DNA of 55,553 bases from a virus (taxonomy: Duplodnaviria; Caudoviricetes), in IMG/VR virus record IMGVR_UViG_3300023265_000002, positions 1 through 55,553 of that record, one strand, 5' to 3'. Position 1 is the first letter of the stretch, and each line of letters starts with the position of its first letter. Positions 1 to 38,391 of the stretch are shown piece after piece. The position numbers were made by a program, and so were the translations under genes. The notes under the pieces were generated by a model that was not told the DNA's origin, made no database searches, and saw nothing but the letters and a program-made list of their open reading frames with translations.

Positions 1-127
1 CCCGGTCATGGAACACCCCGCGCCAGCGCGCAGGAGTGCGGTCGTTCAAGCAGGACGCCTCCGGGTTGAACTCGGGTAACCGAGTTCACGAGGTGGGGAA
101 ATCCGGGTATCGAATCCCGGTCGCACA
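1..127. repeat. 127-bp direct terminal repeat (copy 1); circular assembly overlap
   Basis: 1-127 is identical to 55427-55553; 127 nt is a common assembler k-mer length. Confidence 0.95.
36..127 (+). ncRNA. tRNA-like domain 1 (acceptor, D and T arms; anticodon arm replaced by a long GTAA-capped helix)
   Basis: GTGCGG/TCGCAC acceptor; CGTTC/GGACG D-like arm; CCGGG-TATCGAAT-CCCGG T-like arm; TGAACTCGG-GTAA-CCGAGTTCA helix. Confidence 0.6.
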
Positions 128-173
128 CGCAGTAGGTGAACGTGGCCCGTGAAGCCCTAGTAGCCGGCAAGCA

Positions 174-268
174 GGGCGACTGACATTGGACGTCGGCGCG
201 CTTAGTAGCGGGTAGTCACGCCCCCGCGAACCGCGCGCTGTTGCGGGGTTCGAGCCCCTGCTCGCTCG
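174..268 (+). ncRNA. tRNA-like domain 2 (no anticodon loop)
   Basis: GGGCGA/TCGCTC acceptor; TGAC-ATTGGAC-GTCG D arm with GG; GCGGGG-TTCGAGC-CCCTGC T arm; GCGCGC/GCGCGC extended central helix. Confidence 0.6.
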
Positions 269-623
269 CTGGTCGCAGACGATCGCGACCACGGAATCCA
301 TAACCTGCCACGTCAAGCGGGGGGCCGAGCACCGAAGGGCGCTCGCATCGAACCGCTAGGTGCAGGGGCGGATGGTTTGGGAACCGCTGGGTTGGGCCTG
401 ACGCAGATGGCCAGCGGCAGCACCGGGGGACGGAGTTGGCCCGGTGCACGGTGTGGCTTCGCCGTCAGCCTGTTCGCGGGCTCGCCGCGTTAGGTCACAC
501 CAGCTCGGCCGCCCGCCAAGCAGCGAGGGCCCTTGAGGCTCATCAAGCAACGGGGGCGGCCGAGCACCACAGGTTCCCCGCCCGCCAGCGGGACGACCTG
601 CCGCTGCATCGGCTGGTCGAGCA

Positions 624-656
624 GGGCCCCCTCGTTCGCTGCGACCGAGGGGGCCC
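624..656 (+). terminator. GC-rich hairpin terminator
   Basis: GGGCCCCCTCG...CGAGGGGGCCC. Confidence 0.7.
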
Positions 657-662
657 AACTAT

Positions 663-692
663 TTGACACCCCCCACGGTGGGGGGTTAAGGT
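663..692 (+). promoter_or_regulatory. Palindrome-spacer promoter/operator, leaderless
   Basis: TTGACA-CCCCCCACGGTGGGGGGT-TAAGGT, ATG 6 nt downstream. Confidence 0.85.
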
Positions 693-698
693 GAGCGC

Positions 699-947
699 AT
701 GACGAACGCAGACGACTTCCCCACCTTCTCCGGCGACCTGACCGAGGAGTACGCGCTCGCGCTGCTCATCGACCCGAACGGCCCGCAGGTCTACGCCGCG
801 GCCCGCGCAGCGCTCGCCCGTCCGGTGACCTACGCCGCCCCGCGCCAGTCCACCCGCCCCGCGGCCTCCCCGGTCGGCGGCCTCCGCTTCACCGGCATGA
901 CGCACGACGGCCTGGCCTGCTACTCCGGCCCGGTCGTGGGAATCTGA
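699..947 (+). CDS. hypothetical protein (leaderless, MTN start)
   Basis: ORF with GC3-biased codons directly after the promoter. Confidence 0.8.
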   Translation: MTNADDFPTFSGDLTEEYALALLIDPNGPQVYAAARAALARPVTYAAPRQSTRPAASPVGGLRFTGMTHDGLACYSGPVVGI

Positions 948-1126
948 TGTTCACCCCGCGAGCAGGCGCTGACCTGCCTTACGTGATGATCGCCGACGAC
1001 GGCAGCGAGTGGGTCAACCACAACGACCCGGACCAGACGGTCGACTTGATCGGCGGCGACCCGGAAGACACGTCGACCCTGGGCATCCTCGAGGCGCACG
1101 GCTACCTGTTCCGGAACGCGTCGTGA
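947..1126 (+). CDS. hypothetical protein (59 aa, not in ORF track)
   Basis: TGATG overlap with the upstream gene; MFTPRAGADLPYVMIADDGSEW... Confidence 0.7.
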   Translation: MFTPRAGADLPYVMIADDGSEWVNHNDPDQTVDLIGGDPEDTSTLGILEAHGYLFRNAS

Positions 1127-1329
1127 CCAGCTCGCCGGTCGTCCGGCACTTCCCGCTGCGCGACGGCGGGACCGACATGACCGTGACGCTGCACGGGGAC
1201 GGCACGGTCTGGGTGGGGGACTCATGGGACAACTTGGTCCAGCTCGAGGGGGACCGCCTGCACGCGCTGGCGGACGCGCTGCTCGCGGTGCACGTGTTCC
1301 GCGGGCGTCAAGCGGGCACGAAGCGGTGA
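1123..1329 (+). CDS. hypothetical protein
   Basis: GTGA overlap; typical codon usage. Confidence 0.7.
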   Translation: MTSSPVVRHFPLRDGGTDMTVTLHGDGTVWVGDSWDNLVQLEGDRLHALADALLAVHVFRGRQAGTKR

Positions 1330-1433
1330 GGGAGTTCCTCAAGGCCGTGGCCGTCGTCTGTGCCGCGGTGACCTGTGCGCTGGTGGTGGGTGTCGCGCTG
1401 CTCGTGATCCTGCTGCAGCTCCGATGGATCTAG
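1326..1433 (+). CDS. small membrane protein
   Basis: GTGA overlap; single hydrophobic helix. Confidence 0.6.
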   Translation: MREFLKAVAVVCAAVTCALVVGVALLVILLQLRWI

Positions 1434-1447
1434 CGGTCCGGTGCGCC

Positions 1448-1888
1448 GTGCGGGTGACCCGCTTCCTGCACGCGCTGCTGTACGGCGTCGGCCTGACGAT
1501 GATGTTCGCGCGGCTGTGGGCGCAGGTGGCGGCCTCGCGGTACTGGCTTCCCGAGTGGCACGCGCCCGTCATGGTGGCGTTCTGCTCGGTCGTGCTGGTG
1601 GCGTGCCTGGCCTACGCCAGTTGCGTACCCCCCACGATGGGGGGTACAGTCCGCGGTAGCAAGACACCCGCAACCCAGGAGGCACCCCGTGGACACGCTC
1701 GTCGGCTGGCTCATGATCGGCGGAACACTCTGGCTGTCGTGGCCCGGCTTCACTACCGGACGCCAGCGCGTCGCGCTCGTCGCCCTGGTGCTGCTCGTCC
1801 CGCTCGTCTCCTGGGTGTGGACCATTACGCGGGGCGTTCGCGCACGTCGCGCACAAGCCGCAGACCGGCGGCTCGCCCAGCTCCGTGA
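1448..1888 (+). CDS. membrane protein (2 TM); 3' end runs through the next promoter cassette
   Basis: Hydrophobic N-terminus with good codon usage; C-terminus overlaps the operator and the next gene. Confidence 0.45.
   Translation: MRVTRFLHALLYGVGLTMMFARLWAQVAASRYWLPEWHAPVMVAFCSVVLVACLAYASCVPPTMGGTVRGSKTPATQEAPRGHARRLAHDRRNTLAVVARLHYRTPARRARRPGAARPARLLGVDHYAGRSRTSRTSRRPAARPAP
1621..1650 (+). promoter_or_regulatory. Palindrome-spacer promoter/operator
   Basis: TTGCGT-ACCCCCCACGATGGGGGG-TACAGT. Confidence 0.8.
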
Positions 1889-2054
1889 GCAGTCCGTGCA
1901 GCGAGCGCGGGACATCACCTACTGGCGCGAGCAGCGCGCCGTCGCCATCACCCTCGGCGCAGCGCGAGACCAGGCCGTCGCCGAGGACGTGCTCGACGCG
2001 CTCGGCGCAACCTACCGTCAACCCAGTAGCCCTACCCCCCATCATGGGTGGTAG
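1689..2054 (+). CDS. membrane protein
   Basis: RBS AGGAGG, GTG start, two TM segments. Confidence 0.8.
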   Translation: MDTLVGWLMIGGTLWLSWPGFTTGRQRVALVALVLLVPLVSWVWTITRGVRARRAQAADRRLAQLREQSVQRARDITYWREQRAVAITLGAARDQAVAEDVLDALGATYRQPSSPTPHHGW

Positions 2055-2057
2055 GGT
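2030..2057 (+). promoter_or_regulatory. Degenerate palindrome operator/promoter
   Basis: CCCTACCCCCCATCATGGGTGGTAGGGT; -10 TAGGGT, weak -35. Confidence 0.55.
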
Positions 2058-2081
2058 GTCGCTACCCCGAAAGGACCCGAC

Positions 2082-2186
2082 GTGTTGCAGCACGCAGCCC
2101 CGAGGAAGGGCTGCTTCGGCTCCATCGCGACCGCCCTCGCCGCCGTCCTCGTGACGTTCGGCCTCATCCGGAAGGCACTCCGGTGA
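2082..2186 (+). CDS. small membrane protein (34 aa, not in ORF track)
   Basis: RBS GAAAGGA, GTG; MLQHAAPRKGCFGSIATALAAVLVTFGLIRKALR; stop overlaps the next start. Confidence 0.6.
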   Translation: MLQHAAPRKGCFGSIATALAAVLVTFGLIRKALR

Positions 2187-2368
2187 CCACCAAACCGATC
2201 AAGCGCAGCACCGTTGCGGAGCCGCTCGCCGTGCTCGTGCTGCTGGGCGGGCTCAGCGCCTCGCTCATCCTGTCCGGCTGGCTTCCGCTGTGGGGCAGCG
2301 TCGCCGTCGCGAGCTTCCCGCTGGCGCTGGCCGTCGCCGGGTTCCGCACCGTGGCGCGTGTCCGGTGA
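2183..2368 (+). CDS. small membrane protein
   Basis: GTGA overlap; two hydrophobic helices. Confidence 0.7.
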   Translation: MTTKPIKRSTVAEPLAVLVLLGGLSASLILSGWLPLWGSVAVASFPLALAVAGFRTVARVR

Positions 2369-3321
2369 GCATCCACGACAAGATCCTCCGCGCGCTCGAC
2401 GTGCTGACGTTCCTCTTCCTGGCCTTCCTGATGGTCACGGGCGCTCGCCGCCTGTGGATCGAGGACGGCCCGATCAGCCTGTTCGTGCTGCTCGTCGTGT
2501 CCGTGGTGCTGTACCTGCTGGCGGACTACACCGTCCTGCAGTACCGGCGCTGGCAGCACGGCCGGAGCCGCGACCGGTGCGAGCACGAGCGCGCGCTGCA
2601 GGAGGCGCTCTACCTGCTCGAGTGCCACATCGACACCGACCTCGGCGAGTGCCGCGTCGACCTGTTCGGCGAGTGCTCCGCGCACTGGCCGAGGGACGCG
2701 CACGGCAACTGCGCCTACCCGCAGGCGAAAGCCCTGCTCGACCGATACCCCGTGGAGGCCACGCCCGATGTCCAATCCGCCGACTCCCCCGAACGACCCG
2801 CCCCCGCCGGACCTGATGGACAAGGTCCAGAAGCGCCTGCGCGAGGAGCTGGACAAGCCGAAGCCGCCGAAGCGGTAGAGCGCAAGTTCGTCCGCTGGTC
2901 GGGGACGCTCGGCATGGTGGAGCAGCCCAGCGTCGACCGGCGCAAGCTGGTGCGTCCGGAGATGTTCCTCGGCTACCGCGAAACCCCTCTGCCGATCACG
3001 GTGCGCGACAGCGAGGGGATGACGCAGGTCGGCGGCACCATCCTGGGTGTCGGCCTCCTCGAGGAGCACATCGTCGCGCACGGGGTGCTGCGCGTGGACT
3101 ACCTGACCGAGCACTGCCCGGAACTCCTCGAGCGCCTACTGCGCGGCGAGGCCGCCGCGGTCGGCCTCGAGGTGACGGCGGTCGACGGCGACTACACCTA
3201 CGGCGACGACGCGAGCCTGACGTTCCACACGTGGACCATCCGCGGTGCGCTGCTCGGCGTGGACAAGGCCGCATGGCCGGAGGCACAGATCCGACTCGAT
3301 GCAGAGGAGATCCGTTCATGA
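2365..3321 (+). CDS. membrane-anchored protein with C-terminal prohead-protease-like domain
   Basis: 2 TM at the N-terminus; C-terminal motifs resemble the N-domain of 16449-18860. Confidence 0.7.
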   Translation: MSIHDKILRALDVLTFLFLAFLMVTGARRLWIEDGPISLFVLLVVSVVLYLLADYTVLQYRRWQHGRSRDRCEHERALQEALYLLECHIDTDLGECRVDLFGECSAHWPRDAHGNCAYPQAKALLDRYPVEATPDVQSADSPERPAPAGPDGQGPEAPARGAGQAEAAEAVERKFVRWSGTLGMVEQPSVDRRKLVRPEMFLGYRETPLPITVRDSEGMTQVGGTILGVGLLEEHIVAHGVLRVDYLTEHCPELLERLLRGEAAAVGLEVTAVDGDYTYGDDASLTFHTWTIRGALLGVDKAAWPEAQIRLDAEEIRS

Positions 3322-3722
3322 TCGACTACCACAAGGGTGACACGCTCACCGTGTCCACACCCGACGGCACGAAGCAGGTCTTTCAGGTGATGGCCGTCCA
3401 GCGTGACGACGTCCGCCCCGACGCCCTGACGGTTGCGCTGCAGCGCGTTCAGGACACGCCCGTCGTCGGGGTGCCGACCACGCTCGCCGAAGCGCTCACG
3501 GCGGCCTCAGTCCCATCCGTGGCCGTCGCACCGCTGGCGGAGAAGCTCGCCGCCTACCGCGTGCACCCCTCCCCCGCCGAGAGCCCCAGCGCCGTCAGCG
3601 TGGAGCACGAGCCGTGCACCTGGTATTCGACGGTCGACGGCTACCCCGAAGGCTGCTCGCTGCCGCACCTGCTGGCGCTCGCCCTCGAGCACCACCTGAC
3701 CGGATGCAAGGTGCCGCGATGA
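3318..3722 (+). CDS. hypothetical protein
   Basis: RBS GAGGAG, ATGA overlap. Confidence 0.75.
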   Translation: MIDYHKGDTLTVSTPDGTKQVFQVMAVQRDDVRPDALTVALQRVQDTPVVGVPTTLAEALTAASVPSVAVAPLAEKLAAYRVHPSPAESPSAVSVEHEPCTWYSTVDGYPEGCSLPHLLALALEHHLTGCKVPR

Positions 3723-4351
3723 GGGAGGGCGTCCGGCTCGCCGACGTGCGTCACCCGATCAAGGTCGCCGCCGAGCTGCCGACCGAACCGGCCATGCCAC
3801 CGACGGGGGTCGCCGACCACCGGCCCCACCAGATCGGCACCCATGACGCCGAGGGGTTCCGCACCCACTCCATCCCCGGAGACGTTTGCCTGGGCTGCTC
3901 GGACCCCGGCGCTGGACGGTGGGTGCCGATCTCCCAGTGTCCTCGAGCGCTGGCCGTGCTGGACGGCGAGGGCACCCTGTCCATCCCGGAGTCCCTCGCC
4001 ATCCCAGCACGGTTCGCCGAGCCGGACGTGACCGATTTCGACACCGACGCCCGCCCGCCTGGCGTACCCCTGCCGGAGTCGCTGGGCGGGGTGCCCGACT
4101 GGATCGAGGAGCACGGGCGGGAGATCGACGACCACCTGCGCGACATGCGGCAGGGGCTGGTCACCGTGCTCGCCGAGCTGGACCAGATCGGCGAGTCGAC
4201 GCAGGCGCTACTGTCCTCGCGCCTGTACTGGGTGGAGTTCACCGAGACGGCGGACGGCCCCGACTTCGCGACCGAGTTGGCGAATGTGGCCACGAAGGCG
4301 CGGCACCTGCAGCGCATCCTCGCCGCGGCCGAGGGGCGGTCGTCCTCGTGA
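3719..4351 (+). CDS. hypothetical protein
   Basis: ATGA overlap; CxxC...C motif. Confidence 0.75.
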   Translation: MREGVRLADVRHPIKVAAELPTEPAMPPTGVADHRPHQIGTHDAEGFRTHSIPGDVCLGCSDPGAGRWVPISQCPRALAVLDGEGTLSIPESLAIPARFAEPDVTDFDTDARPPGVPLPESLGGVPDWIEEHGREIDDHLRDMRQGLVTVLAELDQIGESTQALLSSRLYWVEFTETADGPDFATELANVATKARHLQRILAAAEGRSSS

Positions 4352-4923
4352 GCTGGTCGCGCCGGGACCGGGCGAAGTTCGACCGGTGGACGGACGCGGT
4401 GTTCCGGGCGGCGGAGGCGCGCGAGCGCACTGCCACCTGGTCGCGTCACGTGGTCACCCGCGACGGCAACGTCCGACCGCTGCTGCACGCGGACTTCGTC
4501 CCGGTGGACGGGCAGGTCTTCTGGGTGGGCGACTACCCCAGGCAGCGCGTCAACAACTGGATGACGTGGTCGCCCCCGTCGGTCGGCATCCGCGAGGACA
4601 GGTTCGTCCATCCGAGCTGGGCTCGTCCGGGCCCGGCACCACTCACGAAGAGGGCGAAGCGAGGTCGGCCCGTGCCCAGTACCCAGCTCAAGCGAGCGGC
4701 GCGCCGGTATCAGCAGGAGCACGGCGTGCCCTACACGGCTGCTCTGCGCGCCGTGCGCGAGCGAGGCCAGGTTCAGCAGGAGACGAGAGGAGCAGCACCG
4801 ATGAAGATCAACACCCCGCTCCGGATGTCCGGCGGCAAAGAGGACGAGGGAACCGCGGACGCCCGCAAGGAACTCGAGAAGATGGTCGACGCCGAGGAGA
4901 AGAAACAGGGGGGCGGCAAGTGA
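4348..4923 (+). CDS. hypothetical protein (possible internal start at 4801)
   Basis: GTGA overlap; basic helical motif LKRAARRYQQEHGVPYTAALRAV; second RBS GAGAGGAG before ATG 4801. Confidence 0.65.
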   Translation: MSWSRRDRAKFDRWTDAVFRAAEARERTATWSRHVVTRDGNVRPLLHADFVPVDGQVFWVGDYPRQRVNNWMTWSPPSVGIREDRFVHPSWARPGPAPLTKRAKRGRPVPSTQLKRAARRYQQEHGVPYTAALRAVRERGQVQQETRGAAPMKINTPLRMSGGKEDEGTADARKELEKMVDAEEKKQGGGK

Positions 4924-5570
4924 ACGACGCGCAGCGCACCATCGAGCACATCAGCGGCACGCGAGGCCAGCACGAGCACCTGGACGACCTGCTCGGCGAG
5001 CTGTGGCCCGACCACGACGGCACGGGCTCCGCAGTCCCGGAGCTGCTCTCCGAGTACCGGGGTGCCGCGGGACGGTGGGAGGTCCGCGTGCACCAGGTCT
5101 ACCGGTTCCCCGACGACAGCCTCGCCGACCTCGCCCAGTCCGTGCCGCTCGGCCCCGACGGCAACGACGTGCAGCCCCAGTGCGCCGGCACCGTGGTCTA
5201 CGCCGTCGCCCGCCAGGTCGTCGAGTACCTGACCGGCGACCAGCGCAACGCCCTCGGCCTCCTCGAGCGCAAGGACTACCGCCAGCCCGTCGACCACGCC
5301 ACCGAGTGGGCCCTCGGCTACTGGCGCGCCGGGCAGCGCGTCACCCTCGAGAGCATCGGCAGTGGCGACCACGCCGAGAGGCTCGCCCGCGGCTACCACG
5401 CCAAGCAGGCCGACCCGACACAGCTCGCCCTCACCACCTGGGAGCGAGTCACCCTCGAGGCACGCGACGTCTACCTCGCCCCGTGGCACACCATCGACAC
5501 CCCCACCACGGGGACCAGCACCGACCAGCCCAGCACCAGCAGCACCCCTCAAACCACGGGGCAAAAGTAG
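4920..5570 (+). CDS. hypothetical protein
   Basis: GTGA overlap; GC3 bias. Confidence 0.75.
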   Translation: MNDAQRTIEHISGTRGQHEHLDDLLGELWPDHDGTGSAVPELLSEYRGAAGRWEVRVHQVYRFPDDSLADLAQSVPLGPDGNDVQPQCAGTVVYAVARQVVEYLTGDQRNALGLLERKDYRQPVDHATEWALGYWRAGQRVTLESIGSGDHAERLARGYHAKQADPTQLALTTWERVTLEARDVYLAPWHTIDTPTTGTSTDQPSTSSTPQTTGQK

Positions 5571-5660
5571 ACGACCACCAGTGGGAACGCCCGCTGACCT
5601 GCGGCCGAGGTGTTGGGGGCTGGACCCCTGACCCCTCGGCCGTTTGGTTGGGCCCCAGAT

Positions 5661-5689
5661 TTGACACCCCCCATCATGGGGGGTAAGGT
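5661..5689 (+). promoter_or_regulatory. Palindrome-spacer promoter/operator, leaderless
   Basis: TTGACA-CCCCCCATCATGGGGGG-TAAGGT; ATG at 5697. Confidence 0.85.
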
Positions 5690-5696
5690 CACTCCC

Positions 5697-7172
5697 ATGA
5701 CGAACAAGGGAGCAACGGTGAAGCTGACCGAGAAGCAGCGCGAGACCATCGACCGCCTGGCGGGCACCCACGGGCAGGGCTACGTCGGGCTGACCTTCGT
5801 CCGACCGAACACGTGGCGTTCGCTCGTCGGCGCTGGCCTCGTGCAGGAATCCAGCAGCGTGCCCGGCATGTTCAAGCTGACCGAGCAGGGCTACGCGGCC
5901 GCCGGTATCAAGCCCACCTACGACGGCAACATCCGCTCCGCCGAGGGTTCCGCCCGGCTCGAGCACCTGCGTCGCGGCAACGACTCGGCCATGCGCACCG
6001 CGGAGGCCGCGCACCTCCGCGACTCGCAGGTGCTGACGGACTCCCACGGCACGCGCATCGGCGTACTGGGCACGGAGCTGGTGAACGGGCGCACGCGGCT
6101 CTGGACCGTCGACCTCGCCCAGCCGACCATGTCGCCCCTGTGGGTGGACGCGACCCCAGAGATGATGGACATCCTGTTCGTCGCCGAGGGGTGGGCCCGA
6201 CCGCTGTTCATGCGACGCAGCGACTCAGCCCTGCTGTTCCGTGTGCTCGGCAGCGACAGCGAGGGCGTGAACCTGGTGGCTGTGAACGACGAGCGCTACG
6301 AGCTGCACCGCGAGCTGAGCGCGCTGGTCGAGGACGGCTGGATCGCGACCGACCACAACGGCAACGCGCAGGCGCGTCCGGCCGAGACGGACGTCGCCGA
6401 CATCCTGCACCTGATCGACAACCCGCCCACCGTCCGCGAGCTGGACCAGCGCCGGACCGACGAAGCGCTAGAGGGTGTGGTCGAGTCGGACGACGGCCAC
6501 GTGCTGATCGGTGAAGTGCCCCGCGGGCTCGACACGTTCTACTGGGTGGTGCCGGTCGCAGGCGAGCGGCTGACCGACCGGCACGACGTGCTGGGGCCGT
6601 ACGCCACGCTGGACATGGCCGAGTGGAAGCGGGACCAGTACGTCGCCGCGGGCTACCCCTGCAGGGCTCTCGCGTCCGTGACCCGCCCGACCCTGGTCGC
6701 GGTCCCCGCGCAGCCTGCACCGCCGTTCGCCCAGGGCGACACGGTGCTGCAGCTCGACGGGACTCCGGCCGAGGTGTTCGAGGTCGTCGGCGAAACCACG
6801 GTCACCGTGCGCACCGCCGACGGCGAGCTGTGGGAGCACGAGGCCGACGAGCTGTCGCCGCTCGACCCGGACGACCCGCGCGGCCGACCGAAGACGCCCG
6901 CCGAGCTGGCCGAAGACGCCCGCGGCCTCGAGCAGCAGCGCCTCGAGGCCGCCCGGAACTCGACCGACCCGACCGTCCGCGCGTTCTACGGGGTCGACCA
7001 GCCGCGGTGCAGCGAGCACGATGCCTCGTGCGCCGACGGCTGCACCCACCAGCACCGACCGGCGGAACACCGTGTGGTCACGATGACGCTGGCCGAGTAC
7101 ATCGCCAGCGTCGCCGCCACCGTGTCCGCCGTCCGTCGCGCGGCCATGCTGCAGGAGCGCGCCGGATGCTGA
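5697..7172 (+). CDS. multidomain hypothetical protein (N-terminal winged-helix-like, SH3-like segment)
   Basis: MTN start; KLTEKQRET...LVGAGLV...KLTEQG wHTH-like pattern; PFAQGDTV...DELSPL SH3-like pattern. Confidence 0.8.
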   Translation: MTNKGATVKLTEKQRETIDRLAGTHGQGYVGLTFVRPNTWRSLVGAGLVQESSSVPGMFKLTEQGYAAAGIKPTYDGNIRSAEGSARLEHLRRGNDSAMRTAEAAHLRDSQVLTDSHGTRIGVLGTELVNGRTRLWTVDLAQPTMSPLWVDATPEMMDILFVAEGWARPLFMRRSDSALLFRVLGSDSEGVNLVAVNDERYELHRELSALVEDGWIATDHNGNAQARPAETDVADILHLIDNPPTVRELDQRRTDEALEGVVESDDGHVLIGEVPRGLDTFYWVVPVAGERLTDRHDVLGPYATLDMAEWKRDQYVAAGYPCRALASVTRPTLVAVPAQPAPPFAQGDTVLQLDGTPAEVFEVVGETTVTVRTADGELWEHEADELSPLDPDDPRGRPKTPAELAEDARGLEQQRLEAARNSTDPTVRAFYGVDQPRCSEHDASCADGCTHQHRPAEHRVVTMTLAEYIASVAATVSAVRRAAMLQERAGC

Positions 7173-7267
7173 CCGTGCTGCTCGGCCTCGTCGCCCCCGT
7201 CCTGTCGGGGGCGACGCTCGGCCGCGAACTCCGTCTGTGGTGGAAGACCCGAAGGGACTGGACATGA
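7166..7267 (+). CDS. small membrane protein
   Basis: RBS GGAG; hydrophobic N-terminus; overlaps both neighbours. Confidence 0.5.
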   Translation: MLTVLLGLVAPVLSGATLGRELRLWWKTRRDWT

Positions 7268-7533
7268 CGCAGGTCAGCGCGACGTTCTCGATCGCGGGCA
7301 GTGGCTACGCCGAGGGCGAGCTGAACGTCGACCCGGCGCGCATGTCGCCCGCGTACGTGGCCGAGGTGATCGCTAACCGCCTGTGGCCTGGGGTGACCTT
7401 GTGCCACCAGTGCGACGGCGAGATCAGCGACCCGGAGATGACCGAGGTCACGAGCTTCACCATCGGCGACAAGACCTGGTCATCGCGCACCGACCCGGCG
7501 ACGGGCGTCACCGACTGGTTCCTCGAGCCGTGA
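7264..7533 (+). CDS. hypothetical protein
   Basis: ATGA overlap; CHQC motif. Confidence 0.75.
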   Translation: MTQVSATFSIAGSGYAEGELNVDPARMSPAYVAEVIANRLWPGVTLCHQCDGEISDPEMTEVTSFTIGDKTWSSRTDPATGVTDWFLEP

Positions 7534-7904
7534 GCGGCTACTTCGACCCGCTGGGCGACGTGCTGCCGGACTGGCTGATTGCCCAGATGAACGAGGCGCT
7601 CACGGGCGCGACGTTCCACAGCAAGGGGCACGAGGGCGAGCCCGTGTTCCTCGCTGGCGTGCGGGCCCTGGTGCAGCGGGTGGTGCTCCGGCAGGACGCT
7701 GGTCAGCGTGAGGCCGAACTCGTCGAGCGCCAGCGTGCGGAGTTCGCGCGGCACCAGGAGGAGATGCGGGAGGTCACGCGCAGGGCCCGCGAGGAGGTCG
7801 CCGCGGAGCTGGTGGCGCTCGCCCGCGCACGCTCTCTGCTGGACGTCCGGCGCAAGACGGTCCGGATGGAAGACCTGCGGGAGGCTCTCGACCCCCAGGG
7901 ATAG
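7530..7904 (+). CDS. hypothetical coiled-coil protein
   Basis: GTGA overlap. Confidence 0.75.
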   Translation: MSGYFDPLGDVLPDWLIAQMNEALTGATFHSKGHEGEPVFLAGVRALVQRVVLRQDAGQREAELVERQRAEFARHQEEMREVTRRAREEVAAELVALARARSLLDVRRKTVRMEDLREALDPQG

Positions 7905-7910
7905 GGGGTG

Positions 7911-7953
7911 TGGTCGGGGCGCTGCCCACTGGAGATGCGCAGCGCCCCGACCA
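7911..7953 (+). terminator. hairpin terminator
   Basis: TGGTCGGGGCGCTGC...GCAGCGCCCCGACCA. Confidence 0.7.
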
Positions 7954-8004
7954 GGTAGAAGTCTCGACCTCTCACCGACCGGAGAACCGCCAGTGCCTAC
8001 CGAT

Positions 8005-8033
8005 TTGACACCCCCCACCGTGGGGGGTACGGT
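8005..8033 (+). promoter_or_regulatory. Palindrome-spacer promoter/operator, leaderless
   Basis: TTGACA-CCCCCCACCGTGGGGGG-TACGGT; ATG at 8041. Confidence 0.85.
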
Positions 8034-8040
8034 TACCCAC

Positions 8041-8325
8041 ATGACGCACACCGAGAGCATCTACACCGCCGACGACCACGACTACCTGATCGTTCCCGGC
8101 GTCCTGCTGGACACCGAAGAGGGCCTCGAGTGGGGCATCGACTGGGACCAGCAGCTCGCCGAGCAGGGGCAGATCGCCCTCATCGACTCGAGCGGCGAGT
8201 TCGGCGAGATCGTCAGCATCGACGACCTGCGCACCTCCGACCGCTGGACCGCCGTCCGCCGCGACGACGCTGCGCGCGTCTCGCTCGCTACGGCGGCCGA
8301 GCGGCTGCGCCGGTCCGGCCAGTGA
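8041..8325 (+). CDS. hypothetical protein (leaderless)
   Basis: ATGACG start directly after the promoter. Confidence 0.8.
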   Translation: MTHTESIYTADDHDYLIVPGVLLDTEEGLEWGIDWDQQLAEQGQIALIDSSGEFGEIVSIDDLRTSDRWTAVRRDDAARVSLATAAERLRRSGQ

Positions 8326-8924
8326 CGGCGCGCCTTCGCGTGCTCGCGGCCTGCGAGTTCAGCGCCGCGGTCCGGGACGCGTTCCTCGCGCTCGGCCACG
8401 ACGCGTGGTCGTGCGACCTCGAGCCGACCGACGGCGACCCGGCACGGCACCTGCAGGGCGACGTGCTCGAGGTGCTCGACAACGGCGGGCAGTGGGACCT
8501 GGTGCTCGGCTTCCCGCCGTGCACCGACCTCGCCGCGAGCGGGGCGCGCTGGTGGCCGGCGAAGCGGGAAAGCGGGGCGCAGCAGCGCGCGGTCGACTTC
8601 GTGCTCGCCATCGCGAACCACCCGAACGCGGACCGGGTCGCGATCGAGAACCCGGTCGGCTACCTGTCGACCGCGTGGCGCAGGCCGGACCAGATCATCC
8701 AGCCGTGGCAGTTCGGTCACGGCGAGGTCAAGACGACGTGCCTGTGGTTGCGCGGCCTGCCGCTACTCGAGCCGACGGACGTCGTCGAGGGAAGGGACCA
8801 GACGGTATGGCGAATGGCGGACAGCAAGGGGCGGGCGAAGCGCCGCTCGATGACGTACCGGGGGGTCGCGCTCGCAATGGCCTCCCAGTGGGGAGGCCGC
8901 GTGCAGACGGCAGCCACAACGTGA
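8322..8924 (+). CDS. DNA cytosine methyltransferase-like protein
   Basis: VLAACEFSAAVRDAF, SCDL, catalytic FPPCT, IENP motifs. Confidence 0.8.
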   Translation: MTARLRVLAACEFSAAVRDAFLALGHDAWSCDLEPTDGDPARHLQGDVLEVLDNGGQWDLVLGFPPCTDLAASGARWWPAKRESGAQQRAVDFVLAIANHPNADRVAIENPVGYLSTAWRRPDQIIQPWQFGHGEVKTTCLWLRGLPLLEPTDVVEGRDQTVWRMADSKGRAKRRSMTYRGVALAMASQWGGRVQTAATT

Positions 8925-9280
8925 TGTGGCCTAGCCCGGTCGAGATGGGCGACCTCCGCGCGTTCGCCATCCGGATGAACGCGCTGTTCGAGGAAGCGGG
9001 CCGCCAGCTCGCCGCGCTGAAAGCTCCGGCGCTCCGGGCGTCCTCCGCGTGGTCGACGCTCGAGGACGGGCTCAAGCTGCGCCAGCTCAAGTCGGCGGGG
9101 CACCTCGGCCCCGACCTCATGGCCGCGTGCGCTGACCGCGCGTGGCGGATGCAGAACACGGTTCCGCTCGGCCTGCTCGACGTCGAGACCGGAGTCCCGT
9201 GGGTGGTGCTCGCCGCTCGCCGAGCGACGGACCCCCGTCAAGCAGTGATCACCGTTCAAGATCAGGAAGGGCCCCGATGA
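8924..9280 (+). CDS. hypothetical protein
   Basis: Start overlaps the upstream stop. Confidence 0.7.
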   Translation: MWPSPVEMGDLRAFAIRMNALFEEAGRQLAALKAPALRASSAWSTLEDGLKLRQLKSAGHLGPDLMAACADRAWRMQNTVPLGLLDVETGVPWVVLAARRATDPRQAVITVQDQEGPR

Positions 9281-9711
9281 AGATCGAACTCCCGCTGTCC
9301 GACGCGAGCGACGAGGCGTCGTTCCCCGCGGACTTCCACAACCTGCACACCACGGTCGAGGCGTTCCGTCGCGACCTGCTGCCCGCGGACAGCCTCAACG
9401 AGCCGTACGGCTGGGGCTACGAGACCGCCACCACGGACACGCCCGGTCTCGACCCGGCGGACCTGCCTCTCGGCGGCTCCGTGCTGTGGATCTACTACGT
9501 GATGCCGCGCAAGGGGCGCACGCGGGCGACCGGCATCCTGCTGGACGGCAGCGAACGGGCGCTCACGCAGGCGATGGACGCCGTCGCCGCGACCGTGCTG
9601 CCCAGACTGGCGAAGGCCTGGGGTCCGCTGCTCTCGGCCGCGATGACGCGGCTCGCGAACGCGGTCGACGCGCTCGGCATCGCGGACGCGGCAGAGGACG
9701 CAGAGCGGTGA
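9277..9711 (+). CDS. hypothetical protein
   Basis: RBS, ATGA overlap. Confidence 0.75.
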   Translation: MKIELPLSDASDEASFPADFHNLHTTVEAFRRDLLPADSLNEPYGWGYETATTDTPGLDPADLPLGGSVLWIYYVMPRKGRTRATGILLDGSERALTQAMDAVAATVLPRLAKAWGPLLSAAMTRLANAVDALGIADAAEDAER

Positions 9712-9806
9712 CGGTCTTCTACCTGTTCCGCGCGTACGTGGGGCTGCACCAGCTCCGGGAGAGGCTGCGCCAGGCGTCCGTCAGGCGGGCCCGGAGGAGG
9801 CGCTAG
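9708..9806 (+). CDS. small basic hypothetical protein
   Basis: GTGA overlap, 32 aa. Confidence 0.45.
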   Translation: MTVFYLFRAYVGLHQLRERLRQASVRRARRRR

Positions 9807-9814
9807 CCCAGGTG

Positions 9815-9844
9815 TTGACACCCCCCACCGTGGGGGGTTACTCT
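9815..9844 (+). promoter_or_regulatory. Palindrome-spacer promoter/operator, leaderless
   Basis: TTGACA-CCCCCCACCGTGGGGGGT-TACTCT; ATG at 9851. Confidence 0.85.
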
Positions 9845-9850
9845 ACTGCC

Positions 9851-10081
9851 ATGACGAACACGAGCGGTACCCAGGCCATCGCCCCCACCACGCCCGCCAA
9901 CGCGGTCACCGAAGAGCAGGCCTTCCGGATGCTCGGCGGCATGGGCATCACCGAGGACCTGATCGCGGGTGCCTTCTACCGCCTGCGGAACCGGCCGATC
10001 ACCGTTCTCGAGCAGGGCGACCGCACGTTCAGCTTCGAGCGTCTGGGCACCGACGTGTACGTGATCACCGCGGACGCCTGA
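9851..10081 (+). CDS. hypothetical protein (leaderless, MTN)
   Basis: ATGACGAAC start. Confidence 0.8.
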   Translation: MTNTSGTQAIAPTTPANAVTEEQAFRMLGGMGITEDLIAGAFYRLRNRPITVLEQGDRTFSFERLGTDVYVITADA

Positions 10082-10095
10082 CCGCACCCCCCACC

Positions 10096-10130
10096 GCGGG
10101 CCCTGCTCCCTTCCCCGGAGCAGGGCCCGC
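10096..10130 (+). terminator. hairpin
   Basis: GCGGGCCCTGCTCC...GGAGCAGGGCCCGC. Confidence 0.6.
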
Positions 10131-10150
10131 ACCCAGTTGAAGGGACCCCG

Positions 10151-10579
10151 ATGGAGAACAACCGCCGGCGACACCTCGTGATCGCCCTGCCGGAAGACGC
10201 CACGGACGAGGACGTCCAGCGCCTTACCCGCACCTACGAGCTGTACCTGTACCCGTCGCGGGACGCGGTCCAGCGCGACGAGGAGCGCCTCGCGGTCGAG
10301 CTGGTCGACGCCCCCGGCGACGCCCTCGAGGACGCGCTCAACCGTCCAGAGCTGCACCCCACGGCGGACCCGTCCGGCTCGTTCAGCGTGAGGCCGAAGG
10401 GCGGCAGGCCGGACGACTGGGCAGGCCTGGTGCGTCAGCTCGCCGACGGCACCTGGGAAGCAGAGGTGCGAGTCGTCGGGCGACCGGACGGCATGGCCTC
10501 CGAGGTGCTGCCGTGCTCGCCACCCAACCGGCGCGCGGCCGCCCGTCTCGTCATGGCCGCATGGAACGAGGGGCGCTGA
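10151..10579 (+). CDS. hypothetical protein
   Basis: RBS GAAGGGA, ATG. Confidence 0.75.
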   Translation: MENNRRRHLVIALPEDATDEDVQRLTRTYELYLYPSRDAVQRDEERLAVELVDAPGDALEDALNRPELHPTADPSGSFSVRPKGGRPDDWAGLVRQLADGTWEAEVRVVGRPDGMASEVLPCSPPNRRAAARLVMAAWNEGR

Positions 10580-11154
10580 TGGACTTCGACGCCGAGCGGG
10601 TGATCGAGTTGAAGGGTCAGCTCGAGGGGGTGGAGAACCGCGCCCTCGAGCTGTTCGACGCCTTCGCCGAGCTGGCGGTCCGGGCGAACGCGAGCCCGTC
10701 GCTGCTCCGCGAGATTGGACAGCGGGCGAACGGCTCGATCGAGTGGGTGGCGTCGATCAGGGACCGCCGTCTCGGCGAGCTGCGCCAGCGGCTGTCGCTG
10801 GTGGACTCGCCGGTCGAGATGGTTGCTTCCCTGCCCGGCGAGGGGCTGGTCGACTTGAGCCCTAAAGCCGACCTTCCCGCAGGGCTGTCCGCGCGCTGGC
10901 ACGACCGCGAGGTGCGCCCCTCCGACCACGTGCTGCGCCTCGAGGACGAGGAGGGCGACCAGGCCTCGCGCCTGCCCGACGGGCGCTGGTGGTGGTCGCT
11001 CATCAACGGCCAGCGCCTGCAGCTTGTCGACGAGGGTGCGCAGGCGCTCGACTGGGAAGGGCTGCACCTGCGAACGCGCTGGCGGTCCGTCCTGCTGGCG
11101 ACCGTGCAGGAGGACGAGGCCGACCGGCAGAACCCGATCAAGTTCGAACGGTAG
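10579..11154 (+). CDS. hypothetical protein
   Basis: TGATG overlap. Confidence 0.75.
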   Translation: MDFDAERVIELKGQLEGVENRALELFDAFAELAVRANASPSLLREIGQRANGSIEWVASIRDRRLGELRQRLSLVDSPVEMVASLPGEGLVDLSPKADLPAGLSARWHDREVRPSDHVLRLEDEEGDQASRLPDGRWWWSLINGQRLQLVDEGAQALDWEGLHLRTRWRSVLLATVQEDEADRQNPIKFER

Positions 11155-11158
11155 ATGT

Positions 11159-11175
11159 ATTCATAGACGATGAAT
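11159..11175. promoter_or_regulatory. ATTCAT-N5-ATGAAT palindrome, copy 1
   Basis: Same motif at 11832-11848 with shared GATG flank. Confidence 0.55.
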
Positions 11176-11197
11176 GCACCTGCCTCGAGCACGACAA

Positions 11198-11229
11198 AGG
11201 GCCCCCTTCCCTTGAGGGTTGGGGGCCCT
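11198..11229. terminator. bidirectional hairpin between convergent genes
   Basis: AGGGCCCCC...GGGGGCCCT. Confidence 0.65.
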
Positions 11230-11241
11230 GGTGTGCCGGGG

Positions 11242-11418
11242 TCAGAGTGAGCGGATGGCGTTCTCGATCAGGGCGGCCGCGTGGATGGGGGCGAGCATCC
11301 TCGCCTGGCGGCGACGGGCGTCGCGGGCGTGCTCGGTGAACCCGAGTGCCTCGCACTTGCGGGCGATGCGGGCGTTGTAGTCGGCGAGGAGGTTCTCGGC
11401 GTGCATCGTGTTCGTCAT
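11242..11418 (-). CDS. hypothetical protein (leaderless, MTN)
   Basis: ATGACGAAC 6 nt after a minus-strand -10. Confidence 0.75.
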   Translation of the reverse strand: MTNTMHAENLLADYNARIARKCEALGFTEHARDARRRQARMLAPIHAAALIENAIRSL

Positions 11419-11424
11419 GACACG

Positions 11425-11454
11425 AGCGTACCCCCCACGGTGGGGGGTACGCAA
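11425..11454 (-). promoter_or_regulatory. Palindrome-spacer promoter/operator, leaderless
   Basis: TTGCGT-ACCCCCCACCGTGGGGGG-TACGCT on the minus strand. Confidence 0.85.
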
Positions 11455-11491
11455 CTCCTAGTGAAGCAGGTCACATGGTTGAGATTCCGTG

Positions 11492-11521
11492 TTGACACCC
11501 CCCACGGTGGGGGGTTAAGCT
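11492..11521 (+). promoter_or_regulatory. Palindrome-spacer promoter/operator, leaderless
   Basis: TTGACA-CCCCCCACGGTGGGGGGT-TAAGCT; ATG at 11528. Confidence 0.85.
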
Positions 11522-11527
11522 ACTCCC

Positions 11528-11758
11528 ATGACGAACAACGGAAGCCACACCATCACCACCACGGTCACCGACAACGCCACCCCGGAGCAGTGCACGCACC
11601 TCCTGCGCACCATCAAGGACGTGCGCGGCACGGGCACCCGGCTCGCCGTGAAGATGATCGACCAGTTCATGCGCATCACCGAGACGGACACCGACGGCGA
11701 GAAGCTGGCCATCGACGTCTACCCGAACGGCACCGTGACGGACCCCTTCCACGTCTGA
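11528..11758 (+). CDS. hypothetical protein (leaderless, MTN)
   Basis: ATGACGAAC start. Confidence 0.8.
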   Translation: MTNNGSHTITTTVTDNATPEQCTHLLRTIKDVRGTGTRLAVKMIDQFMRITETDTDGEKLAIDVYPNGTVTDPFHV

Positions 11759-11770
11759 CCGCCGGCCACC

Positions 11771-11806
11771 AGCGCCCCGCCCCCCAGCTCGAGGGAGCGG
11801 GGCGCT
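11771..11806 (+). terminator. hairpin terminator
   Basis: AGCGCCCCGC...GCGGGGCGCT. Confidence 0.65.
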
Positions 11807-11831
11807 CTGCTGTGCACGGCCAGGCCGATGG

Positions 11832-11848
11832 ATTCATTGGCTATGAAT
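11832..11848. promoter_or_regulatory. ATTCAT-N5-ATGAAT palindrome, copy 2
   Basis: Matches 11159-11175. Confidence 0.55.
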
Positions 11849-11864
11849 GTTTCCGCCCCTCGGT

Positions 11865-11893
11865 TTGACACCCCCCACCGTGGGGGGTACGCT
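11865..11893 (+). promoter_or_regulatory. Palindrome-spacer promoter/operator, leaderless
   Basis: TTGACA-CCCCCCACCGTGGGGGG-TACGCT; ATG at 11900. Confidence 0.85.
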
Positions 11894-11899
11894 ACCCAT

Positions 11900-12361
11900 A
11901 TGACGAACACGACGCCCGCCCTTCACGTCCGCCCCTACGACAGCAAGACCGTCTACCGCTTCGCCGCGGTCGACACCATCGAGGAGGCCGGAGGCCACCC
12001 CGCCGACCGGAGCGTCTACCTGGTCGACGTCGCCAGCGGCCGCGAGATGATGGTCTTCCTCGGCGACTTCTGCGCCTACTTCGTCGCCGTGTGCGAGCAC
12101 GGGCACAAGCAGGACTGCTGCCTCGAGGCGCAGTGCCAGACGGCCGAGGACTTCGCGCTCGACCTCCGGGTCCGGGCGGACGACCCGCGCCCCGGCGACA
12201 TCGTTCAGGTGGTCGCCACGGGCGAGGAGGACGGCGACCTCGCCGCCGAGCTGCCCCTCGGCACCATCGTGATGAAGGCGGGCCCCGGCGCGATGGTGGC
12301 GTTCGAGGGTCGCGACCGCCCGATGTGGCTGGCCTGGGAGCAGCTCCACTTCTGCGACTAG
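11900..12361 (+). CDS. hypothetical protein (leaderless, MTN; SH3-like C-terminus)
   Basis: ATGACGAAC start; PRPGDIVQV...WEQL. Confidence 0.8.
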   Translation: MTNTTPALHVRPYDSKTVYRFAAVDTIEEAGGHPADRSVYLVDVASGREMMVFLGDFCAYFVAVCEHGHKQDCCLEAQCQTAEDFALDLRVRADDPRPGDIVQVVATGEEDGDLAAELPLGTIVMKAGPGAMVAFEGRDRPMWLAWEQLHFCD

Positions 12362-12368
12362 AAGGGGC

Positions 12369-12398
12369 TTGCGTACCCCCCACGATGGGGGGTACGCT
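12369..12398 (+). promoter_or_regulatory. Palindrome-spacer promoter/operator, leaderless
   Basis: TTGCGT-ACCCCCCACGATGGGGGG-TACGCT; ATG at 12405. Confidence 0.85.
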
Positions 12399-12404
12399 AT
12401 CCAC

Positions 12405-12713: not shown

Positions 12714-12729
12714 CCCTGCACCCCCACTG

Positions 12730-12761
12730 CACCCCCGACCCCCACAGGGTCGGGGGTGTTT
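12730..12761 (+). terminator. intrinsic terminator
   Basis: CACCCCCGACCC...GGGTCGGGGGTG followed by TTT. Confidence 0.75.
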
Positions 12762-12801
12762 GCCGTTACGATCACCGGACCCCCGACTCGAGGAGTTCCG
12801 A

Positions 12802-38360: not shown

Positions 38361-38391
38361 TGTCTGGCCTGGCGGTCATTCGGGGCCCCTG

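Follow-up and report, generated by a model that had tools for sequence, protein, structure and literature searches.

A candidate gene for a large structured RNA across the assembly junction of an actinophage genome

Introduction

What does a phage keep in the longest stretch of its genome that holds no gene? The question is raised by the two ends of the window, meaning the whole stretch of 55,553 nucleotides analysed here, whose source is an uncultured, high-GC and probably lytic actinophage of soil and leaf litter. A sequence-only reading of this DNA had proposed that the ends, once joined, encode a large structured RNA. To our knowledge, large structured phage RNAs such as GOLLD and ROOL rank with the most poorly understood classes of RNA, with few families described, and a search of Rfam 15 and the literature returned no large structured RNA for this actinophage lineage. 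If the locus does encode a new family, it would provide a second, independent system in which to ask what role such RNAs play in infection and whether tRNA mimicry recurs among them.

Results

The joined ends form a non-coding stretch

Bases 1-127 of the window are identical to bases 55427-55553 and the record is therefore circular at 55,426 bp, the 127-nt terminal repeat (55427-55553) being the mark of a circular assembly closure. The genome of a sister phage (contig G001) runs uninterrupted over the junction. Since the contig ends of both assemblies are arbitrary and differ from each other, they are uninformative on the genome termini. The comparison set used throughout consists of these two full-length sequences and the fragmentary variants X3, X5 and X8, few and near-identical relatives, with the changes in the variants read among the differences listed, beyond which lie a further 59 substitutions and 12 indels.

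Joining the ends yields an 800-nt stretch (55325-698) in which GC3 filtering leaves no gene. Codon-position GC periodicity is absent from it, and its stop-to-stop frames of at least 40 codons reach a GC3 of at most 0.81, versus 0.93-0.95 in four real genes. The claim that this is the only long gene-free stretch holds in part: it is the longest low-periodicity stretch of the genome and contains no coding-type open reading frame, but shorter low-periodicity runs exist at three other places (around 38.3-38.6, 42.2-42.5 and 47.0-47.4 kb). Single-nucleotide indels at positions 156, 569 and 609 separate the two phages, and any reading frame would therefore be shifted. A small leaderless frame starting at ATG 55367, the sole promoter-proximal ATG, was considered and discarded; by our own count it has a low GC3, and the ATG is gone in the sister. 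The stretch from 55333 to 660 is non-coding.

The large terminase gene occupies 52057-53856, and the element lies 1.5 kb downstream of it in the largest intergenic gap. Among ten flanking proteins the terminase is the only one with a Pfam match, and nine of the ten have no PHROG match.

A promoter-like cassette and a terminator-like hairpin bracket the stretch

Promoters of leaderless transcripts in Actinobacteria combine a TTGACA-like -35 element with a TAnnnT -10 element placed 6-7 nt ahead of the first transcribed base. The phage carries a repeated cassette with a 23-nt motif that has 10 matches (up to 3 mismatches), versus 0 in shuffled sequences; in seven of the eight copies bearing TTGACA, an ATGACG start follows 6-7 nt past TAnnnT, so that, as at leaderless promoters of Actinobacteria, the neighbouring cassettes begin directly with ATG. 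Compared with these eight copies, the element at 55333-55361 (plus strand) is a recognisable diverged copy composed of TTGCAC, a 17-nt spacer with a palindrome of a C-run and a G-run, and TATGGT (TTGCGC...TAGGGT in the sister). What sets this copy, ahead of the candidate RNA, apart from the leaderless promoters is the divergence of its -35 and spacer and the lack of a conserved start codon. A promoter had been proposed at exactly this place, and a promoter-like element that matches the cassette is there, but a generic consensus scan does not call it: with a sigma-70-type promoter defined as two hexamers near TTGACA and TATAAT, 16-18 nt apart, the scan of the sister region returned 0 promoters, and likewise 0 U-tailed terminators. 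By analogy with the spacing in the leaderless cassettes, transcription would start at about 55367-55369, 6-8 nt past the -10 element.

At the opposite end, the proposed terminator corresponds to a hairpin at 624-656 (plus strand) with a perfect 11-bp GC-rich stem and inner pairs, for which no change appears among the listed differences in the sister, X3, X5 or X8. The hairpin is there as proposed, but its tail, AACUAUUU, has no proper U-tract and fails the U-tail rule of the terminator scan. The next full cassette starts 7 nt past this hairpin, and the transcription unit to which it belongs (663-707, plus strand), in which a canonical cassette leads into a leaderless start (ATGACGAAC, at 699), bounds the non-coding unit on its 3' side.

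Architecture of the proposed RNA: the 5' part

Between these brackets the proposed RNA would span about 720 nt on the plus strand, with a 5' end segment at 55367-55426 and the remainder at 1-660. The 5' segment contains predicted hairpins at about 55396-55409 and from 55410 across the junction to 2, as well as the 5' strand of a candidate closing helix (55379-87/16-24) in which the pair G55387-C16 becomes C-G in the sister, as read by hand. A second helix, proposed to close the 5' and 3' ends (55371-77/602-608), is complementary in the window but keeps only five of its seven pairs in the sister, where three of the seven bases have changed on the 3' side and none on the 5' side.

Further along, fold prediction places a hairpin with an 8-bp stem and a GUAA tetraloop at 68-87 (plus strand); the sister has a GCAA loop here, still of the GNRA type, and G.U in place of the pair A69-U86. 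It is followed by a T-arm-like hairpin at 103-120 (plus strand), whose stem has 5 bp and whose 8-nt loop, UAUCGAAU, is non-canonical; G112 in this loop is an A in the sister.

The window-only fold further predicts a cloverleaf-like four-way junction at 171-270 (plus strand), in which the stem 171-180/262-270 closes a junction that holds a small hairpin, the long arm 196-201/233-238 and a T-arm. Its folding z score is -0.12, and the region is therefore not more stable than its shuffles. Sister changes at 175, 179 and 236 leave the pairs of this fold intact as G.U or A-U, and the pair affected by the change at 245 is kept in the alignment fold only. The T-arm itself (243-261, plus strand), found by a scan for a pattern in which a 5-bp stem carries a 7-nt loop of the form U-U/A-C-R-A, has a 6-bp stem and the loop UUCGAGC, and is the sole strict T-arm pattern on either strand of the 55.5-kb window. 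X3 and X8 present a 5-bp stem, with one base lost per side, and the loop UUCGAUC; the same two-base shortening is seen in X5.

Two tRNA-like domains had been claimed for this region. One canonical T-arm stands, but no tRNA is recognised around it: with default and -ps settings, ARAGORN called no tRNA or tmRNA gene in either the window or the contiguous sister locus, giving weak cloverleaves at lowered 80% thresholds (-ps80) only, and the Rfam scan listed no tRNA match with E of 10 or below. A tmRNA, that is, a tRNA-like domain joined to a tag reading frame, was recognised by neither ARAGORN nor Rfam.

An invariant core and exchangeable 3' hairpins

Aligned over 52,151 columns, the sister and window genomes are 91.3% identical; the longest run that they share without a difference is 281-568 (288 nt), ahead of one of 209 nt. 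Within the proposed RNA, the differences from the sister number 27 in 55362-280, 0 in 281-568 and 15 in 569-622. At the centre lies a near-invariant core of about 140 nt (281-419, plus strand), identical in G000 and G001 and kept almost unchanged in the soil-metagenome variants; in X8 it shows 4 listed differences per 139 nt, versus 63 plus 12 gaps in the whole 624-nt piece. The core folds with a z score of only -0.2 to -1.1, which is no improvement on its shuffles. Inside it, a hairpin at 323-350 (plus strand) is swappable: difference tables allowed us to rebuild the X3 and X5 sequences, which have another, perfectly paired hairpin in its place.

Downstream, a hairpin cluster (420-573, plus strand) comprises hairpins at 420-447, at 450-501 with a UUCG loop (473-476), and at 503-565 with a perfect 12-bp stem. 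It is very stable, the segment 418-567 folding with a z score of -5.15 and as well as none of 200 shuffles, and it behaves as a swappable module. X3 and X5 have 118 unrelated letters in place of 420-573, and X8 has 84 in place of 445-564. In the 587-nt contig of X3, changes at 467, 497 and 528 preserve pairs and one at 553 breaks a pair. The last hairpin before the terminator-like one (594-619, plus strand) is built from another sequence in the sister, with 596-617 going from A-U to G-C and 601-612 from C-G to U-A; its remaining sister pairs, read by hand, require a register shift. In all, three hairpins (323-350, 243-261 and 594-619) have had their two strands rebuilt or shortened in concert. 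The best-conserved DNA of the whole genome lies within the element, which is modular.

As to the individual helices of the sequence-only reading, 55371-77/602-608, 140-146/307-313, 420-427/440-447 and 503-514/554-565 are exact complements, and two repeated words do occur twice each (at 55413 and 333, and at 323 and 558). The strands of 366-385/572-583 are not exact complements, and those of 450-458/493-501 pair only if G.U is allowed. The hairpins at 420-573 assigned to a second multibranch domain give way to unrelated sequence in relatives. The global architecture as a whole (closing helix, long-range helix and second multibranch domain) is putative.

Statistical support for the fold

Statistical support for an RNA fold is weak. 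The whole element has a folding z score of -2.9 in the window, compared with +0.5 to -2.3 in ten coding windows of the same genome, and in the sister the z score is -4.9 on the plus strand (20 shuffles) versus -2.5 on the minus strand. The window value is barely past that of the most negative coding window. The element has four perfect stems of at least 8 bp, whereas 300 shuffles average 1.56 and only 19 of them reach four; a stem of at least 12 bp occurs in 4 of the 300. In full-length single-sequence folds, sister substitutions are not significantly biased to unpaired or pair-keeping sites (P 0.09-0.96).

Search for relatives

Sequence searches recovered little beyond the sister. A blastn search of window positions 1-700 against 50,697 phage records gave no match; three exact DNA patterns of the element hit only the sister contig in IMG/VR, and one pattern had 0 matches in 185,579 species genomes. 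Searches anchored on the terminase located 14 IMG/VR loci, 13 JGI metagenome loci and 3 genome loci, the only close ones being the sister and a 4-kb contig (L036) that ends at the terminase. They also give a hint of hosts within the Streptosporangiales, Microbispora or Spirillospora. Across 13 and 15 loci, nhmmer with a two-sequence profile reached a best E of 0.6, and blastn against three prophage-bearing genomes and 401 genomes of their order returned short GC-rich chance matches only. A repeat check established that none of three chance-match loci is a CRISPR array, and another chance match, L051, was rejected as a tRNA. A comparable non-coding stretch in the phages of L012 and L013 turned out to be covered by a 593-aa open reading frame and had no Rfam match.

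A covariance model of the core (271-420) found itself and the sister only among 23 sources, with a best E of 0.18 in 151 genomes. Among the 17 sequencing runs listed as carrying the element, none is an RNA run. In everything searched, the family is confined to one narrow phage lineage.

Discussion

A probable separate gene for a structured RNA

The explanation to which we give moderate credence is that 55333-660 constitutes a gene of its own in an actinophage, its product being a structured non-coding RNA some 720 nt long that belongs to no described family. The central idea of the sequence-only reading, a long non-coding unit for a structured RNA across the junction, fits the non-coding status, the brackets, the conservation, the rebuilt hairpins and the RNA-type loop motifs, namely the canonical T-arm, the GNRA loop kept as GUAA/GCAA and the UUCG loop.

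According to this explanation, the element would behave like the leaderless early genes beside it: host RNA polymerase would transcribe it early, starting at about 55367 and stopping at about 660. The working part would be the invariant core, either binding a host or phage partner or forming a tertiary fold invisible to energy models, and the T-loop modules may imitate the tRNA elbow. Only tentatively, and with far more doubt than belief, do we suggest that the RNA is a tRNA-mimicking decoy or scaffold; it would engage host factors that handle or target tRNA, for instance RNase P, modification enzymes or anticodon nucleases, while the stable 3' hairpins would shield it from decay. The evidence justifies a collection of variants and a transcript test and is insufficient for any claim of function.

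Alternative explanations

A DNA-level cis element would also account for several of these observations. The region would then be a cos/pac packaging site, a terminase recognition region or a replication origin, with the core as protein-binding DNA and the hairpins as palindromes or incidental features. The location 1.5 kb downstream of the terminase gene, in the largest gap between genes, agrees with such a role, as do the exceptional DNA conservation, a core folding energy unremarkable for RNA and a structure conservation index that is equal on the two strands (0.94 and 0.94). However, a promoter cassette and a strong hairpin bracket the region in the manner of a gene, its T-loop, retained GNRA loop and UUCG loop are RNA-specific, and the assembly ends, being arbitrary, say nothing about termini. 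In addition, changes at paired sites of the window-only fold helices keep pairing in 13 of 23 cases on the plus strand (10 broken) versus 7 of 21 on the minus strand (14 broken), an asymmetry that is small and involves several helices judged post hoc. We regard a DNA element as unlikely.

To a similar degree we doubt that the region is a decayed tRNA cluster with a hairpin-rich spacer, conserved through recent exchange among close relatives. The T-arms could be relics, cloverleaves emerge from ARAGORN at 80% thresholds alone, and no tRNA gene is called in the phage. The two sisters also disagree in the putative anticodon of cloverleaf 1 (A69G), and the segment 420-573 is freely replaced in relatives. 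Decay does not readily explain why 281-419, which is not tRNA-like, stays near-invariant in variants about 10% different elsewhere, nor why the T-arm remains canonical through two-sided shortening, nor the region's own promoter cassette and closing hairpin.

Far less probable is a long cis-regulatory leader in which the hairpin 624-656 would act as a conditional terminator gating read-through to the early genes from 699. The hairpin does sit directly upstream of the early gene block, and the C-run in the terminator stem might, in principle, be contested by a G-run at 319-325. Against this, the gene that follows is served by a full cassette and a leaderless start of its own, the Rfam scans match no riboswitch, T-box or leader family, and 720 nt is far longer than known leaders.

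The disfavoured and least probable alternative is a highly divergent GOLLD or ROOL, which the comparable size, the phage-borne setting, the conserved part beside a variable one and the embedded tRNA-like modules would suit, given how those families are described (Kretsch et al. 2025, PMC12286853), but this phage has no tRNA island and neither RF02032 nor RF03087 matches at E up to 10, the ROOL search being of unproven sensitivity.

Several narrower candidates were also set aside. A tRNA-gene relic serving as attP is unlikely because no integrase domain was found. Positions 571-597 resemble what we take to be a CRISPR repeat type; an RNA anti-CRISPR that mimics a repeat was rejected, as the Rfam scans gave no CRISPR-DR family and the sister lacks the C-run at 16-19. 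An antisense role against phage mRNAs was dropped as well, the best complementary match elsewhere in the genome being 18 of 19 nt (E 0.03). A bacterial Y RNA (YrlA-like) had no Rfam match, and the TROVE (Ro) domain PF05731 had 0 matches in the phage.

Comparison with known RNA families

All-Rfam scans of the window and the sister (4227 families) gave nothing relevant, GOLLD and ROOL included. Searched on their own against G001, the GOLLD model RF02032 (416 positions, gathering score 150 bits) and the ROOL model RF03087 (574 positions, gathering score 99.1 bits; control, 0 of 14 genomes) each had 0 matches at E up to 10. The proposal of a divergent GOLLD or ROOL accordingly finds no backing from either model, and that of a new class, consistent with the all-Rfam scans, is a possibility only, with two full-length sequences and fragments at hand. 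Its fullest form is that the element founds a new class of large modular actinophage RNAs, with an invariant core of about 140 nt, T-loop modules that mimic the tRNA elbow, exchangeable hyper-stable hairpins and a host-type early promoter, working as an RNA-only or RNA-protein machine. We consider this conceivable, with the balance somewhat against it; the machine could be, for example, a decoy for tRNA-directed host defences or a GOLLD/ROOL-like assembly.

GOLLD reportedly occurs in tRNA arrays of Mycobacterium. Kretsch et al. 2025 describe GOLLD as a large RNA of phages and prophages with a conserved 3' region, a variable 5' region and, at times, tRNAs in the linker, and ROOL as an ornate phage and prophage RNA of about 580 nt that is often near tRNA islands (PMC12286853). 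Like GOLLD as portrayed there, our candidate RNA is hundreds of nucleotides long, phage-borne and composed of a conserved part beside a less conserved one. Unlike GOLLD, its conserved part is central and not 3'-terminal, the phage carries no tRNA genes and the model does not match; the location typical of GOLLD, next to tRNA genes, is therefore shared as to the phage and not as to the tRNA genes (0 by ARAGORN in the whole window). From ROOL it differs in its hosts, in having no tRNA island here and in lacking a model match.

Among tRNA-like comparators are the tRNA mimics of the bacterial Y RNA/YrlA type and the small stable RNAs of the phage T4 tRNA cluster. Unlike a tRNA, the candidate has no CCA end, is about ten times longer and is recognised by neither ARAGORN nor Infernal. 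Like a tRNA, it presents a canonical T-arm with a UUCGA-type loop beside an acceptor-like stem, and a second T-arm-like hairpin at 103-120.

A gene-free stretch across the assembly junction

Once the ends of the record (G000) are joined, positions 55325 to 698 form an 800-nt stretch in which no gene is left after the GC3 filter. Codon-position GC periodicity is absent across it, and GC3 is at most 0.81 in all 18 stop-to-stop frames of at least 40 codons, against 0.93–0.95 in four real genes. The stretch is the longest of its kind in the genome; the sequence-only reading had called it the only long one, which is too strong, because three shorter stretches without codon periodicity (about 300–500 nt) lie at approximately 38326–38626, 42166–42526 and 47026–47386. 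That near 42.2 kb contains a minus-strand promoter cassette. The join across which the candidate ncRNA (hereafter the element) would lie is confirmed: the related phage contig G001 (55,701 nt) has the region uninterrupted. G001 is linear, with ends that differ from those of G000, and is contiguous across the G000 junction.

The first 127 bases of G000 equal its last 127 (1–127 = 55427–55553), so the genome is a 55,426-bp circle as assembled. This "direct terminal repeat" shows where the circular assembly closes and is thus uninformative on the true genome termini. With a G+C content of 70.4%, the genome encodes a T4-type large terminase (52057–53856), portal, major head and tail proteins, a tape measure, an Erf-like annealing protein and an endolysin; a search for an integrase domain found none. 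The major head protein reaches at most about 37% identity with those of cultured Gordonia, Arthrobacter, Microbacterium and Streptomyces phages, and the nearest terminase relatives in genomes (45–48% identity) are those of Microbispora corallina, Spirillospora sp. and Microbispora oryzae, where no homologue of the element is present. From these matches we take G000 to be an uncultured actinophage, possibly a Streptosporangiales phage, the terminase relatives hinting at that order as the host group.

Around 13 kb of small ORFs without family match (699–13251 and 53847–55324) lie between the terminase and ncRNA and the portal gene at 13726. A PHROG match is missing for nine of the ten proteins flanking the ncRNA, and only the terminase among them matches Pfam. 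Elsewhere, an 803-aa protein (16449–18860) matches PHROGs for portal or MuF-like, head-protease and virion proteins; its residues 349–457 also match phrog_2659, annotated as RNA ligase, which could matter if the phage handles RNA ends. Codon periodicity is also low over 900 nt of L013 (2705–4486), a terminase-related phage contig. This stretch is probably no analogue of the element: it has no Rfam match and is covered by a 593-aa ORF, probably for a low-complexity protein.

Conservation and modular organisation

Aligned over 52,151 columns, G000 and G001 share 91.3% identity, and their longest identical run is 281–568 (288 nt; the runner-up is 209 nt). The proposed RNA spans 726 of the columns, and 42 of these differ; 27 lie before 281 and 15 in 569–622, which leaves 281–568 without any. 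Variants were read from contigs of 4 of the 17 sequencing runs holding parts of the element, aligned to the sister locus (G001); the differences given here are those listed, and 59 further substitutions, 12 indels and contig-end changes lie outside them. A 151-nt fragment from run X4 is identical to the core (281–419), and a 587-nt contig from X3 carries four transitions within 420–595. More distant forms occur in X3/X5, with 118 other letters in place of 420–573, and in X8, with 84 other letters in place of 445–564. The listed X8 differences within 281–419 are four (308, 346, 350, 381), its 624-nt piece having 63 differences and 12 gaps overall. As far as its variants indicate, the element is therefore modular. 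A variable 5' part leads into a core that hardly changes; next come a hairpin cluster open to exchange and a hairpin that evolves fast, and an invariant hairpin closes the element. Its distribution is narrow.

All 17 runs are DNA runs and none is an RNA run. The structure conservation index (0.94) is alike on the + and − strands. For helices from segment folds of the window only, paired-site changes on the + strand number 13 kept and 10 broken, and on the − strand 7 kept and 14 broken, a point in favour of an RNA structure. A DNA-level packaging or origin element is an unlikely reading.

Folding and local structure

The whole element has a z score of −2.9 in the window (+0.5 to −2.3 in ten coding windows of the same genome) and, in the sister, of −4.9 (+ strand) and −2.5 (− strand). 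Strong signal is limited to 418–567 (z −5.15), 590–660 (z −4.5) and 30–135 (z −2.6); the cloverleaf-like part (z −0.12) is no more stable than shuffles, nor is the invariant core (z −0.2 and −1.1). Perfect stems of at least 8 bp are somewhat more frequent than by chance (four observed; at least four in 19 of 300 shuffles), and a 12-bp stem arises in 4 of 300. In full-length single-sequence folds, the 39 substitutions of the sister are without significant bias. This result, the equal conservation index on both strands and the shuffle-like folding of core and cloverleaf weigh against an RNA structure.

Several local hairpins speak in its favour. Hairpin 68–87 retains its GNRA loop in the sister (GUAA to GCAA), with A69-U86 becoming G·U. 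Hairpin 594–619 is rebuilt there, with double compensatory pairs in register at 596–617 and 601–612 and the others forming after a one-base shift; G55387-C16 becomes C-G (both read by hand). In the hairpin cluster of the 587-nt X3 contig, pairing survives three of four changes (as G·U or A-U) and is lost at the fourth, and X3/X5 have a different perfect hairpin in place of 323–350. Both words reported as repeated were found twice. One, of 13 nt, forms a hairpin top at both its sites (55410–55428, wrapping to base 2, and 323–345), making loop-loop contacts or a common protein site possible; its 5' copy has the loop AGGGCGC, which includes the self-complementary GCGC, and G55414A in the sister weakens that stem.

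The global architecture first proposed fared less well. Four of its six helices are exact complements, whereas 366–385/572–583 and 450–458/493–501 are not. The 5'/3' helix 55371–77/602–608, exact in the window, loses two pairs and gains a wobble in the sister, uncompensated; each phage has an alternative end-to-end pairing, which competes with hairpin 594–619. The long-range helix 140–146/307–313 is the same in both sisters, and in the three variants with C308U a G·U pair would remain, but this change equally fits the alternative partner G362. The hairpins of the "second multibranch domain" are real and very stable, yet are not a conserved core, because relatives replace them.

As for two tRNA-like domains, one canonical T-arm stands (243–261), the sole strict match on either strand of the window; across twelve other loci the same pattern matched twice, once in a real tRNA. 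Its stem shortens from 6 to 5 bp in X3 and X8, losing one base per side (loop UUCGAUC), with the same two-base shortening in X5. ARAGORN called no tRNA or tmRNA gene, and at 80% thresholds only poor cloverleaves at 34–130 and 195–267. An 8-bp GNRA hairpin far stronger than the former competes with it, and the two sisters differ in this cloverleaf's "anticodon". That the element is a decayed tRNA cluster with spacer seems improbable to us.

Promoter cassette and closing hairpin

A 23-nt motif recurs in the phage: TTGACA and, after it, a C6-ACSGT-G6 palindrome. Allowing up to 3 mismatches, it matches 10 times, and 100 shuffles give no match. Eight cassette copies have TTGACA; seven of these continue with a TAnnnT hexamer and, 6–7 nt on, ATGACGAAC (six copies) or ATGACGCAC (one copy). 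Cassettes lie at 663–707, 5661–5705, 8005–8050, 9815–9860, 11492–11536, 11865–11910, 42241–42197 (− strand) and 19188, where a leader follows; 54292–54320 has the palindrome only. With the start codon 6–7 nt past the −10 within the conserved ATGACGAAC or ATGACGCAC, these seven early genes appear leaderless and have their first three codons in common. Promoters of leaderless mRNAs are common in Actinobacteria, and the cassette layout is as expected for such promoters. The palindrome in the spacer could be an operator.

Positions 55333–55361 are a diverged cassette copy (TTGCAC, 17 nt, TATGGT; TTGCGC...TAGGGT in the sister). The stretch is closed by hairpin 624–656, whose 11-bp stem is perfect; the sister has the identical hairpin, and no differences are listed in three further variants. 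A generic scan detected no promoter here and no terminator with a U-tail, so both assignments, made at these positions by the sequence-only reading, depend on the strength of the hairpin and on the pattern that the phage itself repeats. An ATG at 55367 follows the promoter-like element and is absent in the sister; the full cassette of the next gene begins 7 nt past the hairpin. We regard a conditional leader as very unlikely.

Known families and interpretation

No Rfam 15 model (4227) matched the window at gathering thresholds, and at E≤10 the segments 1–750 and 55250–55553 and the contiguous sister locus gave hairpin-level noise only. A divergent GOLLD or ROOL member is the least credible reading, neither GOLLD (RF02032) nor ROOL (RF03087) matching the sister genome at E≤10, the latter in a weaker search whose control matched nowhere. 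A TROVE/Ro gene was not found in the phage, and the parts of the literature searched, including parts of PMC12286853, report no such RNA for actinophages.

We lean towards reading the element as a candidate gene for a structured ncRNA of a new family, transcribed early by the host polymerase. An invariant core of unremarkable energy is typical of a partner-binding site or tertiary contacts, the T-loop modules suggest mimicry of the tRNA elbow, and the stable hairpins on the 3' side resemble stabilisers that can be exchanged. Tentatively, the RNA might act as a decoy or scaffold toward host tRNA-handling or tRNA-targeting factors. If real, the element would be a new family within a known kind, the large structured RNAs of phages whose function is unknown.
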